A stretch of DNA of 64,000 bases from Eledone cirrhosa. Lineage: Eukaryota. The translations under genes were made by a program, and so were the position numbers. The stretch's first letter is position 1. Each line of letters starts with the position of its first letter. The notes under the pieces were generated by a model. It did not search any database and was not told the DNA's origin. It saw nothing but the letters and a program-made list of their open reading frames with translations. The stretch lies in NCBI GenBank assembly GCA_964016885.1, contig OZ024760.1, forward strand, positions 14,322,001 to 14,386,000. The letters are read 5' to 3'. Of the stretch, positions 10,182 to 63,784 are shown piece after piece.

Positions 10182-10421
10182 GAGAAAGTATGACCCCGAA
10201 GGCAGAGCTCAAGCCGTTTCGACGGCTATTTCAGTCCAGAAATAGCCGCCGAAACGGCTTGAGCTCTGCCGTCGGGGTCATACTTTCTCCTATTACCCAC
10301 AGCATTGAGTACTCTTGTGCGTTATGGTCCATCTGGTTCCTTACCACAACTCCTTCGTTATTATTATATATATAGTCCAGGACGGCTTGAGCTCTGCCGT
10401 CGGGGTCATACTTTTTCCTAT
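10182..10421 (+). mobile_element. Fold-back HHR-derived element family B plus adjacent partial copy
   Basis: Inverted arms around a ggctattt/aaatagcc hairpin; GAAA-CGGC..GCCG-TC-GGGGTC; tail with TTGAGTACTC at 10305; partial arm 10375-10421. Confidence 0.85.
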
Positions 10422-11519
10422 ATTTATATATACATATATATATATTACATGTACTTACAGATATACACATATATGTACATAAACATACATATTTATAATC
10501 ACACACACACACACACACACACACACACACACACACACACACACACACACAGCGAGCATGCAGTCGTGCGGCATGCATTTAAGCATTTAAAAATATACAA
10601 GAGATTGAAATATGTAAATGCTAAAAGTGGAGAAGACCGTAAAAGCATGTTTAAAATAGGGATGACTGCGGCGACGAAAGAGGAGATGGCGATGCTGGTG
10701 ATGATGGTGCTTGCTGTGATGATGGTGATGCTGGTGATGATGGTGATTGCTGTGATGATGGTGATGATAGTGATTGCTGTGATGATGGTGATGATAGTGA
10801 TTGCTGTGATGATGGTGATGGTGAATAGAGATTAAAAAAAAAAAAAAAGGTTGAAGCAAATATAACAAATAAAGTGAATACAATCAGATCTGTTGTATTA
10901 GAAATGAAATAGAACGGAGAGAGGGGGGGGGGGGGGGGGGTTAGCAAGGGAGCACACACACACACACTCGCATACATGGTCATAGTTACACACACATACA
11001 TAAACACAATTGCACACACATTAACACAGCACAAACACACACATATATGATCACAATTACACACACATAAACACAATTGCACACACACACACACATATGA
11101 TCACCGTTACACACACACATATAAACAGAGCACAGTCACACACACACATGATCACAATTACACACACAAAAACACAACTGCACATGCACACACACACACA
11201 CTCACAATTACACACATACATATGATTACAATTACACACACACACCTAAAAAAAGCGATATTGTGTTCGCTCCTCCGAAGCACTGACAGCATAATAACTA
11301 AGGCTGTTATAGATGATGATGATGATGATACGGAGGAGGGGGAGGGGTGTGTGGATAGGGGGTACCGTGTGGTGTGTGTATGGGGGGTAATACCAGGAGG
11401 AAAGGCAGTAAAGAGGCCACCACAGCAGCAACTACTTCACTTCGCTTACAGCACCTCCATACAACAACACCACCACATTAGCAACACTTCATTCCGAAGG
11501 GGAAACTAAAGGAGCAAGT

Positions 11520-11810
11520 AGTAGTAGTGGTGGTGGTGGTGGTGGTGGTAGTGGTAGTAGTGGTGGTGGTAGTGGTGGTAGTAGTAGTAGTAGTGGTGGT
11601 GGTGGTGGTGGTGGTGGTGGTGGTAGTAGTAGTGGTGGTAGTAATAGTAGTGGTGGTGGTAGTGGTGGTGGTGGTAGTAGTAGTGGTGGTAGTAATAGTA
11701 GTGGTGGTGGTAGTAGTAGTAGTGGTGGTGGTAGTAGTAGTAGTGGTGGTGGTAGTGGTAGTGGTAGTAGCAGTAGCGGTGGTAGTGGTAGTAGTAGTAG
11801 TAGTAGTAAC
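11520..11810. repeat. (GTG/GTA)n trinucleotide repeat
   Basis: Direct reading. Confidence 0.95.
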
Positions 11811-13122
11811 AGCATTATGAATTAAAGGGTCGTTTGTTGGTTGGTGTAGGTAGGTTTTGTACATGTATCAGAACACTGCTGCTGCTAACACATAAATACA
11901 TATATATACATACACGTGTGTGTGTGTATTATATACACAGTTAATACAATGGAACACACACACTGGTTTTATATATATATACCTATATATACATACATAC
12001 GTATATACACATATACCTATATACGTATATATATATATACACACACACAAACATATATATATACGTATATATATATACACACACAAACATATATATATAT
12101 ATATATATACACACACACATACATATATATACATACACATACCTAGATATATATATATATATACACACACACGCGCGCGTGCATACATATATATATATAT
12201 ATACACACACACATATATATATATACACACACATATATATATATACACACACATACCTATATATACATACACATACCTTTATATATATATATATATATAT
12301 ATATACATACACACACATATACCTATATATATATACACACACATATACCTATATATATATATACACACACATATACCTATATATATATATACATACACAT
12401 AAGATGCACTTATATACATACACATATACCTATATATATATATATGGAAATGTGGTTAAGTGTGTAATAGGAACCGTCATTTCCCTCCTTGTAAGGAAAG
12501 ATAGGAAAGGACGAGAGGAATAACTACTGTACACAGCTATAAGTACCTATAAGCATAAATATAGCTATATGTATATAGAAGGACATCTTTACGTTTACAA
12601 ATTATCTATACGTAAATATGTGTGTGTGTGTGTAGAGGGAGAGAGAGAGAGATGCAAGCGTATCTTTATGAAGTGTATCCATATGCAAATATGTGTAGCT
12701 ATATGTAAATATGTGTGTGTATATATATATATATATATATATGTATGTATATAAGTGCATCTTTACGTTTACAAGTGTATCTATATGTAAATATGTGTGT
12801 ATATATATATATATATATATATATATATATATATATATATATATTTATGTGAATGTATATAAGTGCATCTTTACGTTTACAAGTGTATCTATCTATCTTT
12901 ATGTATACAAATGTATCTATATGTATAAGTGTATTTTTATATGTACAAGTGTATCTGTATGTATGTATATATGTGTGTGTGTGTATCCATATGAATATAT
13001 GTGTAGCTATATGTACATATGTTTCTAAGTGTATCTCTGTATCTCTCGCTTTGTATATATGTATGTTGTTATATAGCAAGCACCATGTGCGTACATGTTG
13101 CTATATGTATGTGTGTGTGTGT

Positions 13123-13248
13123 ATCCCGGGTTCAATGGGAGGTAACCACAGTAAGTAAGGTACTCAATACATAGTAGAGTATACATATTTAATATAGAAA
13201 TGGCTTCTACAGGGCTAGAACCGTTTCATTCGAAGAAAATCATCAGGA
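13123..13248 (-). mobile_element. HHR-tail element family C
   Basis: Minus strand tc-CTGATGA-ttttcttcgaat-GAAA-CGG-ttctagcc-CTG-TA-GAAGCC, then tail with TTGAGTAC; homologous to 17163, 23483 and 61596. Confidence 0.8.
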
Positions 13249-13363
13249 TATGTGTGTGCGTCTGTGCAACTGTATCCATTATTGTTACATAGAATCAACA
13301 TAACTATTATTTCTCTTTTCTTGTTTAATAATACTAAGTCAATCCAACTGAGGAGGATTTGCA

Positions 13364-60794: not shown

Positions 60795-61052
60795 ATCATC
60801 ATCATCATCATCATCATCATCACCACAATCATCATCATCATCTTCATTAACATCAACATCATCATCACCACAATCATCATCATCAGCATCATCACCATCA
60901 ACATCATCATCACCACAATCATCATCATCATCATCATCATCATCACCACAATCATCATCATCATCATCATCATCATCTTCATTAACATCATCATCACAAT
61001 CATCAGCATCATCAGCATCATCATCATCATCATCATCAACATCATCACCACC
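60795..61052. repeat. (CAT)n trinucleotide repeat
   Basis: Direct reading. Confidence 0.95.
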
Positions 61053-61409
61053 AATGGGTCAACAAAGGAGGCTGAACTGTATCAAATGTCTCTCGGAATA
61101 TCATCAAATAGAACAGCAACTGGGTCAACATATGGCCCGGGGGGGGGGGCGGTAGATGGGGAGAAGGGCTGATTTTTATGGGGTGGGGGGAATAGATGGG
61201 GAGAAGGGCTGATTTTTATTGGGGTGGGGGGAATAGATGGGGAGAAGGGCTGATGTTTATGTTATTGGTTTAGGGTTCAATGGAAATAGATTGGGAACAG
61301 AACAGGGATTCAGTTCAGGTCAGAAAAAGGTGCTGGGGACAGACAGACACACACAGACAGACATCATACACAGCACTCACTCACTCTCTCTATATATATA
61401 TATATATAT

Positions 61410-62220
61410 AACTGCCGTTAGCGAGCTTATACTATTAAGTCTACGTTAACGTATGTCAATATCTTAACACCAAATATTATATTTTATCTGATGAAAGCAC
61501 ACTAACATTTTGTGTCCTTCAAATACGTATAATAAAATAAATATGGTATTATAAAGATATTTTCCATTTATTAATATTGTTAATATATATATATATTTAA
61601 TATAGAAATAGCTTCTACAGGACTAGAACTGTTCCATTCGGGAGAAATCATCAGGAAAGATGAGTAAATATTTATACTCTGCTATGTATTGAGTACTTTA
61701 CTTACTGTGGTTACCCCCGAATGAACCCGGGATAAACATATATATAAAGTGGACGTGTAGGCGCCACGGGAAAAAAGCACCCAGTCCACACTGTAAATGA
61801 GGTTGGTGTTAGGAAGGGCATCCAGCCGTAGAAATCGTGCCAGAATCAGTTCCAGTATGAACAAGACAAGGTCAGCCGACCAGACACTGCCCTCAACAGG
61901 ACAACCCATCTAACCTATGCTAGAGTGGAAGAATGGACGTAAAACGGTGATGATGATGATATATGTGTGTGTGTGTGTATATATATATATATATATGTAT
62001 ATGTATGTGTGTGTGTGTGTATATATATATATATATATATATATATATATATCAATAATATTAATAAATGGAAAATATCTTTATAAAACCATATATTTAT
62101 TTTATTATACATATTTCAAGGGTACCAGTATTTTGGTACGCTATCGTCAGATAAAATACAATATTTGGTTTACAGATAATGACATATCAACATATGAACT
62201 TAATGTTATGAGTTCAATGT
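61410..62220. mobile_element. Cluster: family D HHR (+, 61480-61539), family C element (61596-61738), SINE family 3 (61750-61960), family D HHR (-, 62098-62158)
   Basis: CTGATGA at 61488 (GAAA mutated to CAAA); minus-strand CTGACGA..GAAA-TATGTA-TA at 62098-62158; family C arm and tail with TTGAGTACT at 61689. Confidence 0.8.
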
Positions 62221-63406
62221 AGATAGTATATATATATATGTATATATATATATATATATATATATATATATATATATATATATATATATATATACCATAT
62301 TTGGGTTTCTTCAACTCCTAAATCAAGTACTGTCTGCTTAGACAAATAATGTTAAATTTTTGGTAAGATGATCGAACAAGGGAGTCACTTTCTCAACATG
62401 CTTTTAGTTTAAGTGCCAAGCGAAGGACCATTATCAAAACACACGTGGAGCTCGACAAGGGGGGCAACCCTTAGTTTTGGCGGATGAATTCGGTATGTGC
62501 GTTATTATTGCAAAATTGCAAAATATCACAAAACGAATAAAGTTCTCAACAAAATGGTTTTAAAATTAACAAAAGCTTTAATTAGTCAATTAACTAAAAT
62601 TAACTAATTAACTAAAAAAATCAAGAAAATTAACTGGTCAATAGCTAGACTCTGGAGATTAATACAAATATAAATTAGCGAGAATCGTATTTCGGCTATT
62701 GGAAATTAGCGAAAAACAACTTCCGAGATGTGTGGCAAGTGCTCCATAGAAGCTAGTGAACTAGAGCTACAACATAAGTTAAAAGGCCGAACACACTGAG
62801 ACGATGGTTAAACCATTATCCGCACAGCCATAGAAACGACCAACTAATTTGGGTCAAACAAATAAAATATGATTGAAATATATATATATATATATATATA
62901 TATATATATATATATATATATATATATATGTGTATATATGTATATAGCAGCAACATCAACAACAACTGCAGTTGAGTCAATATTAATTGGGAGTGAAAGA
63001 CAGAAATAGGATTGAAGTGAATGATGTAGAGAGAGAAAGAGTGAGAGAGAGGGGGGAGAGGGGGGGGGGGGGGCAGATTGAGAGAGAGAGGGAGAGCGAG
63101 AGAGAGGGGATAGATATATATAGACTGATATACATACATATATACACATACTGATATATAGACTGATACACATACACATACATATATGTATATATACATG
63201 CATACATACATACATGCATGCGTGCATATATATATATATATATATATATATGCATACATATACATACATGATCACACACATTCGTGCACATTCATATATG
63301 TATGCATATGTATATATGTGTATATGCATGTATGCATATATATGTATATATATGCATGTATGCATATATATGTATATATATGCATGTAGGTATGTATATA
63401 TATATA

Positions 63407-63784
63407 CAATGATATTAAATAAATGGAAACTATATTTACAAAACCATATTTATTTTATTATATATATTTCAAGGGTACCAAGACACATTGATACGCTTTC
63501 ATCAGATAAAATACAAAGTTTGTTTTATAAATAGAGACATACCCATAAAAATCATACCTTATCGGTTGGAAATTCACTGTATTTTATTTTATCTGATGAA
63601 AGCGTATCAATGTGTCTTGGTACCCTTGAAATATATATAATAAAATAAATATGGTTTTGTAAATATAGTTTCCATTTATTTAATATCATTGAATATTTAC
63701 TCCAGTAAACTGTTGAGTGCTCTAAATCAGTTATAAACATTTATATTTGTTGGAATTCCAACAAATTAAATACCCCTTCTACTT
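63407..63784 (+). mobile_element. Family D fold-back with two intact HHRs (63451-63513 minus, 63583-63649 plus) and 3' tail
   Basis: Arms ~63407-63514 and ~63578-63691; UUUAUUUUAU-CUGAUGA-AAGCGUAUCAA-ugugUc-UUGGUACCCUU-GAAA-U-AUAU-A-UA-AUAAAAUAAA; tail TTGAGTGCTC at 63713; TA-flanked. Confidence 0.9.

Follow-up and report, generated by a model that had tools for sequence, protein, structure and literature searches.

A twin stem-loop in the leaders of Hydra-clade Penelope-like elements of Eledone cirrhosa, a candidate binding site for the element's reverse transcriptase

We analyzed a 64,000-nt stretch of the Eledone cirrhosa genome (GenBank assembly GCA_964016885.1, contig OZ024760.1, positions 14,322,001 to 14,386,000 of the forward strand; hereafter the window), in which short hammerhead-bearing repeats share the motif TGAGTRC in their 3' tails. 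In structure, TGAGTRC makes up the 3' side of a stem-loop with a bulge (RCTC-[variable helix]-2 nt-GAGYRC), which belongs to Hydra-clade Penelope-like elements (PLEs). The stem is real and under selection, and as far as our literature search reaches it is a previously undescribed cis-element in a known clade. The twin stem-loop likely acts in RNA, as a candidate site at which the reverse transcriptase (RT) of the element binds for internal starts. In the best reading, to which we give a probability of roughly 65%, this putative binding site determines the two positions at which internal copying starts, and thereby accounts for the "tail" of PLEs.

Results

The motif forms the 3' side of a bulged stem-loop

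The host is an animal with a genome of 3.0 Gb, rich in AT and in microsatellites. An initial annotation, made from the letters of the window alone, had reported TGAGTRC at 11 sites, and all 11 positions and strands were confirmed. The window shows no enrichment of the bare motif (22 matches seen versus 15.2 +/- 4.3 expected, a count that 6 of 100 shuffles reach), and the remaining 11 of the 22 matches all lie outside hammerhead elements. It is the structure and the position of the motif, not the 7-mer as such, that stand above chance. In nine of the 11 copies an upstream ACTC pairs with the GAGT of the motif around a family-specific inner helix, with a bulge of 1-2 nt on the 3' side, while the 5' strand is mutated to ATTC in the copy at 43879 and deleted in the copy at 10305. 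The carriers are short hammerhead stubs inserted in (TA)n, often as head-to-head palindromes, and the motif lies in their unpaired tail, 43-70 nt from the first microsatellite in ten copies and within the same range in the copy at 43879.

The carrier families are stubs of one clade

Families B, C, D and F, which carry the motif in the window, had been described as otherwise unrelated, but they proved to be 3' stubs of a single clade, the Hydra-clade PLEs (family letters beyond B-F are labels coined in the present analysis). The Hydra parents were found only by walking upstream from the stubs; a genome search with the Pfam GIY-YIG profile led to Neptune and Poseidon parents, the stubs of which are without the motif. 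The parent of family B is a 3531-bp tandem unit with one open reading frame (ORF) of 784 codons that encodes RT and a GIY-YIG endonuclease (YRDD, VIY...YIG). Its protein, P0001, contains RWR, HSDKTG (DKT), CNCPDRSIC (CxCx5C), CNLCSEE (CxxC) and ACKH (CxH). Family B was assigned to the Hydra clade because its ORF bears the marks given for that clade, namely RWK, DKT (for DKG), a CxCx5C linker, and CxxC and CxH around conserved E and N (Craig et al., 2021, PMC8557442; this and the other papers are cited throughout from their accessible passages). RW was found in 7/7 families and DKT in 6/6 of those reaching that part. A Pfam search of P0001 itself gave no match; its homologues carry PF26215 and, in one case, also PF01541.

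The leaders of F, G, D, C, N, O and P, the last three being extra families met while walking upstream, continue into ORFs that are 35-52% identical to that of B. A quick tree was built from 23 rows, of which 8 were less than half filled, with the named Hydra references left out; in it, the eight families and five metagenome relatives group apart from the Neptune and Poseidon elements of this genome with a support of 100 in the Shimodaira-Hasegawa-like approximate likelihood ratio test (SH-aLRT). Type I hammerhead cores were identified by sequence in the terminal repeat of C, D, F, G, H, I and J. The motif of family B had been placed downstream of a hammerhead as well, but the B copies of the window hold only the 3' half of the ribozyme, and the core of their parent is the U3/A8 variant (described in PMC4209133). 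Further Hydra-type traits are insertion into (TA)n, tandem and inverted copies, and a one-sided tail.

A tandem array of family B, with at least five units of 3531 bp and an open ORF, is located at G000:C1:437196000-437215999 (L199, L200). The 40 copies of the B 3' region that were scored all match the query at 100% identity, which makes this family very young. The B palindromes (26058-26070 and others) fold back inside hammerhead stem II nearly always, which leaves the stubs with no more than the 3' half of the ribozyme. Family N has more than 100 near-identical N-termini, dozens of them in open frames of 725-784 codons (e.g., L323, L329, L331-L335), and gave only two matches in the 844-kb sample described below; the ratio of stubs to full-length copies is the opposite in B. 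The tandem units of B and D (the latter of about 2450 bp) contain RT coding sequence, and identity with non-long terminal repeat (non-LTR) retrozymes, which are non-coding tandem hammerhead units, was rejected on this ground.

Two copies of the stem mark two insertion ends

In the full-length leaders of all eight families the stem occurs twice between the hammerhead and the ATG, and copy 2 lies directly past the long insertion end. Nine of the 16 sites are canonical and five retain CTC/GAG but have a mismatch in the outer pair (F2, N1, N2, O1, O2), the stem at F2 enclosing about 90 nt. The other two are P1, which is without the trailing RC, and C2, which has shrunk to a 2-bp stem ending in AGCAC. 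Conservation for coding was rejected, as the motif precedes the ATG in 8/8 leaders, and a splice donor was dropped, as the base preceding GAG varies and the partner strand covaries.

Insertion ends were scored in a sample of 844 kb picked independently of the motif, consisting of the window and 78 stretches of 10 kb. We obtained 197 matches to seven of the eight leaders and none for O. A microsatellite junction could be called in 150 of them: 66 end before stem 1 (short ends), 77 before stem 2 (long ends) and 7 elsewhere. Thus, 143/150 callable ends are situated just 5' of one stem, mostly by 3-8 nt. The proposal that the motif keeps a constrained distance of 45-70 nt to the 3' end has to be replaced, since what is fixed is that the next stem follows each end at a distance of about 3-8 nt. 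The earlier figure of 45-70 nt corresponds to the spacing to the second stem copy, which is not included in the insert. As ends fall just before a stem, the stem that marks an end is never within the insert at that end. The tails of these families measure about 60-110 nt.

The arms of head-to-head copies follow the same pattern. Among 58 such pairs in the 844 kb, 49 combine a short with a long end, two are short+short, none is long+long and seven are unclassified, which gives 49 short+long pairs among 51 that can be classified (p 6e-13 versus 50%). When all genome loci were considered, including those that had been targeted, 113 of 155 pairs were short+long, three long+long and three short+short, the rest having tandem or unclassified arms.

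The stem is conserved in metagenome relatives

From a metagenome scan, the best 80 of 434 relatives were grouped into 64 clusters at 85% DNA identity, of which 49 have at least 100 nt 5' of the ORF. A first descriptor, set on this genome alone, matched 43 of the 49 clusters (shuffles: mean 5.7, maximum 10). A stricter descriptor, defined after the result of the first was known, identified at least one stem in 42/49 clusters and at least two in 25 (shuffles: mean 0.7, maximum 4). It matched 3/335 ORF windows used as controls and 11/49 leaders on the reverse strand, the latter because the stem is partly self-complementary. Relative to the ORF start, the copies are located at -100 to -138 and at -37 to -71. 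GCTC is present in 68/68 stems and GAGCAC in 66/68, followed by T in 65; without a pairing filter, an upstream GCTC was found at 67/75 GAGCAC sites. The relatives thus have GCTC/GAGC where the E. cirrhosa families have ACTC/GAGT.

The inner helix covaries. In copy 1, again without a pairing filter, the scores are 31/31 for pair 1, 23/30 for pair 2 and 19/25 for pair 3, versus 19.2, 14.4 and 7.3 after a permutation that ignores the relatedness of the sequences; in copy 2, pairs 2 and 3 covary. A 3' repeat alignable to the leader was found in 45 contigs, of which 8 continue into an ORF, 12 reach the contig end and 25 have true ends. The true end lies no more than 10 nt from a scored stem in 18 of these 25, and 0-6 nt before the start of an unscored stem in three more.

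File S7 of PMC8557442 contains six Hydra consensuses, which we also inspected by eye. A clear stem is present in three of them (one from a coral and two from sea cucumber), twice in one of the three; one-base variants were seen in a copepod and an octopus consensus, and a weak stem in one coral element.

Other stubs and unassigned matches

The descriptor gave no match in stubs tied to ORFs of Neptune (X8) or Poseidon (X16), in X1, which is linked to a non-Hydra endonuclease, or in the seeds of E, X3, X6, X9, X15, X21, M, K and K2; K has a GAGCT variant. The stem or a variant of it is present in H, I, J and K, and the single match in Q lies away from the expected offset. Neither H-K nor X3, X6, X15, X21, M and Q, in which the stem is absent or unclear, have an assigned parent, and a Hydra-clade family that lacks the stem may be among the latter. 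Upstream of non-Hydra ORF fragments the score was 0/9, several of these not being true leaders. In the 844 kb, 75 of 109 strict matches fall in assigned families and 34 outside them; about half of the 34 look like more families by eye, and the unassigned matches likely represent more Hydra-clade families.

The Neptune-type groups N1 (L139, L140, L144, L147, L148, L150) and N3 (L145, L151, L157) end in a U3/A8 hammerhead variant. Both, as well as a copy at about 8650-8740 (-) in the window, have a different tail hairpin, ACTY-GTGT-loop-ACAC, which starts a few bases past the short end; in neither of the two junction copies seen does this hairpin recur ahead of the ORF. In family X3 (L150, L242), which is without the stem, the sequence past the short end appears to re-enter its own hammerhead; this family appears to be a non-coding tandem unit of the retrozyme type.

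Copies of the stem and neighboring features in the window

The stem-loops of families B, C, D and F in the window correspond to copy 1. In family B, the stem at 26126..26151 (+) consists of ACTC, a 4-bp inner helix, TT and GAGTAC. It lies in a head-to-head insertion in (TA)n at 26006..26197 that has only the 3' half of the hammerhead (parent unit L199/L200); the left arm stops at the short site and the right arm at the long site. The other B copies are at 16635..16660 (+), at 43861..43886 (+), where the 5' strand is the mutated ATTC, and at 10305..10312 (+), where a 12-nt deletion has removed the 5' strand and only the 3' strand is left. Family C contributes stems at 13160..13180 (-) in the element 13119-13248, at 17201..17221 (-) in the element 17158-17289, at 23626..23647 (+) within the head-to-head insertion 23488-23677, at 61676..61696 (+) within the head-to-head insertion 61588-61741, and, as a variant, at 23776..23797 (-). 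The single family D stem, of the GAGTGC form, is at 63699..63720 (+) in a head-to-head insertion (63397..63783) with a short left end, a long right end and a complete type I hammerhead on each arm (cores 63593 + and 63505 -). The stem of family F, at 16772..16793 (-), has a 1-nt bulge and belongs to the head-to-head insertion 16734..16939, with a hammerhead core at 16865 (-).

As had been noted, family E is without the motif. Its hammerhead stub at 13347..13600 (+) represents an old family with copies that are 70-80% identical, and its parent was not found, as none of 18 matches is linked to an RT or endonuclease. The Neptune-type stub X8 at 2626..2818 (-), also without the stem, serves as an internal negative control. 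A stem-loop of the same form (GAGCAC or GAGTGC) at 62739-62767 (-) lies outside the defined families and likely represents a further Hydra-clade family, and in a diverged J-like head-to-head element at 7608-8074 the stem has lost its 3' strand. At 16555-16940 and 61470-61745, and also at L135 and L079, common (TA)n tracts link stubs of different families into chains, from which it follows that the same microsatellite has been hit by repeated insertion. TGAGTAC at 21199, 52145, 54785 (+), 54827 (+) and 44315 (-) belongs to two abundant unrelated repeats without hammerheads that inflate the bare counts, and which we take to be similar to short or long interspersed nuclear elements (SINEs or LINEs). 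Among the matches listed from an Rfam scan (150 of 403) there were only microsatellite look-alikes of microRNA families and no hammerhead family.

Discussion

A probable role for the twin stem in the initiation of reverse transcription

The motif had been proposed to be a conserved cis-signal for the mobilizing RT/endonuclease, for RT initiation or for RNA dimerization. Its standing as a conserved cis-signal is upheld, and clade-wide conservation, covariation and the fixed geometry of the ends make RT initiation the likeliest role, whereas dimerization finds no such support. Under this reading, read-through RNA from a tandem array would present both stems to the RT-endonuclease, probably a dimer, which would bind both and nick the (TA)n target on both strands. 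From each nick, priming would take place on the TA-like bases just 5' of one stem, giving one start per strand, and the two complementary DNAs (cDNAs) would extend inward and then join head to head to form a short+long palindrome. Since copying at an end leaves out the stem that sets it, the "tail" would be what lies between the two stems. A copy with a long end would require stem 2, which is found only at the junction between repeat and ORF, and the stubs would thus be truncated products of coding elements and not self-propagating short families. We suggest more tentatively, as a possibility that we would not favor outright, that the two stems, each 3' of its template, dock the halves of a dimeric RT-endonuclease, so that both (TA)n strands prime simultaneously.

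Several observations weigh against a start-site function. The stem is weak (z from -0.1 to -1.8, or none); among eight tested, four have the proposed fold as that of minimum energy. The outer pair is mismatched in copy 2 of F and in N and O, copy 1 of P is without the trailing RC, and the long end of family C is normal although its copy 2 is a 2-bp stem without GAG. In the metagenome relatives, pair 1 of copy 2 is invariant, pair 4 shows no covariation in either copy, 7/49 leaders have no stem and 4/25 ends miss it by 12-86 nt. As for the ends in E. cirrhosa, 47/197 matches have no callable junction, ends were scored over a broad range (-3 to +14 nt), TA microhomology blurs the offsets by 3-8 nt, and the offsets of family C are more scattered. 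Neptune elements form two-ended tails without a twin stem, so the twin stem is not a general solution among PLEs. Finally, the G.U counts are 12 for the sense and 10 for the antisense orientation, which does not tell the two strands apart.

The last point bears on an alternative in which the stem acts in DNA: the GIY-YIG endonuclease would read it in single-stranded cDNA or in an extruded donor and cut nearby, trimming the copy to the short or the long end. Such a signal would also account for the offsets and the short+long pairing, and the G.U comparison is neutral toward it. The tail has been ascribed to endonuclease-mediated resolution (PMC8557442), and the Drosophila Penelope endonuclease required the tail for recognition (cited in PMC11167929). 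On the other hand, in the single PLE that has been reconstituted the tail ends are RT start sites on RNA (PMC11167929), and inner helices that span from 6 to about 90 nt are ill-suited to recognition in double-stranded DNA. We consider a DNA signal clearly less probable than the RNA reading, yet a serious rival to it.

Less probable still is that the stems bind a protein of the element or some factor of the host and serve packaging, control of translation or processing of the RNA 3' end, with the RT starting at processed ends or at TA-like bases. The position of copy 2, 37-71 nt 5' of the ORF start, would suit autoregulation, and the TA-like bases at the ends could prime through microhomology alone. 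However, the whole leaders are AT-rich, yet ends cluster only before the stems, and the addition of 3' RNA left the product of the anole element unchanged (PMC11167929).

The palindrome GAGTACTC, which had been claimed for the motif and might let two RNAs dimerize, is true of only 3/4 family B copies in the window; although it is self-complementary and head-to-head products might use two RNAs, this is very improbable, as the clade-wide form GAGCAC (66/68 metagenome stems) is not palindromic, family C reads GAGTACCT, and GAG is engaged in a stem with a covarying inner helix.

Common descent without function is the least credible explanation and is refuted in the main by covariation and offsets: all carriers with a known parent are from one clade, and z exceeds 3 in 4/28 whole-tail pairs, but the flanks are otherwise unalignable around a near-invariant core, covarying helices and fixed offsets. 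Nor do the tails for the most part align along their length, as simple descent would have it; 3' of the motif only 2/28 family pairs reach z >= 3 against shuffles (F-D 3.0, G-D 3.6), and 26/28 are below 2. Descent accounts for the distribution of the motif, not for the motif alone surviving.

Comparison with known systems

In stringent LINE/SINE pairs, stem-loops in the 3' tail are RT-specific and lie near the start of reverse transcription, within the copied region. The LINE stem-loop is thus upstream of the 3' end and copied, whereas the Hydra stem is downstream of the start, left out of the copy, and doubled. In L1 twin priming, priming occurs from both target strands, as suggested here; the difference is that both arms of the Hydra-clade insertions copy the same segment.

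The closest known elements are the Hydra-clade PLEs with a C-terminal endonuclease (Craig et al., 2021, PMC8557442), which share the single RT + GIY-YIG ORF with its marks, the hammerhead in the terminal repeat, the (TA)n target, tandem and inverted copies, and an optional tail. The passages on Hydra elements in that paper describe no twin stem, and the tail is 30-40 nt there as compared to about 60-110 nt here; family B also differs in its U3/A8 hammerhead core. Inverted, 5'-truncated palindromes of the PLE pseudo-LTR likewise have head-to-head copies with the tail on one arm (Arkhipova et al., 2013, PMC3846280), but self-priming on an antisense template was proposed for these, while here the arm ends map to two stem copies. 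Animal non-LTR retrozymes are also short non-coding hammerhead units from PLE terminal repeats (bioRxiv 10.64898/2026.07.22.740005), whereas B, C, D and F can be traced to coding elements as their 3' stubs and are not tandem non-coding units.

For the anole Poseidon element PAc, it was shown that the RT has two internal start sites, downstream of the hammerhead, which form the boundaries of the tail, and that it extends both target strands, with a dimer predicted (Frangieh et al., 2024, PMC11167929). The PAc RT needs RNA to +172 and starts near +111-118, i.e., the required RNA reaches about 55 nt 3' of the start. Two starts that bound the tail and a requirement for RNA 3' of the start are features in common with the elements studied here, although PAc is from another clade. 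GAGYRC is not evident in the RNA printed for PAc, in which a CUC/GAG-containing hairpin after the start region, seen by eye, is only a lead. The RT-binding motif was not pinned down in the PAc study, and the twin stem supplies a candidate for such an element 3' of each start.

Implications

No description of the stem was found in the searchable literature, subscription papers, Repbase notes and the content of figures being beyond the reach of this search. How the one-sided tail and the inverted repeats of PLEs originate is an open question (PMC8557442; PMC3846280), for which the twin stem is a specific, clade-wide candidate with a measurable geometry. If true, the dual-docking rule alone would yield the tail, the palindrome of head-to-head arms and their short+long asymmetry, and a portable stem of roughly 20 nt would program the start of a telomerase-related RT on any RNA. 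The young and intact coding families B and N of this genome suit a direct test, and the short stem can be used as a diagnostic of Hydra-clade stubs in genome annotation. Telomerase RT has its closest relatives among the RTs of PLEs (PMC8557442), so that a stem in the RNA which sets where copying begins internally would bear on the evolution of template choice.

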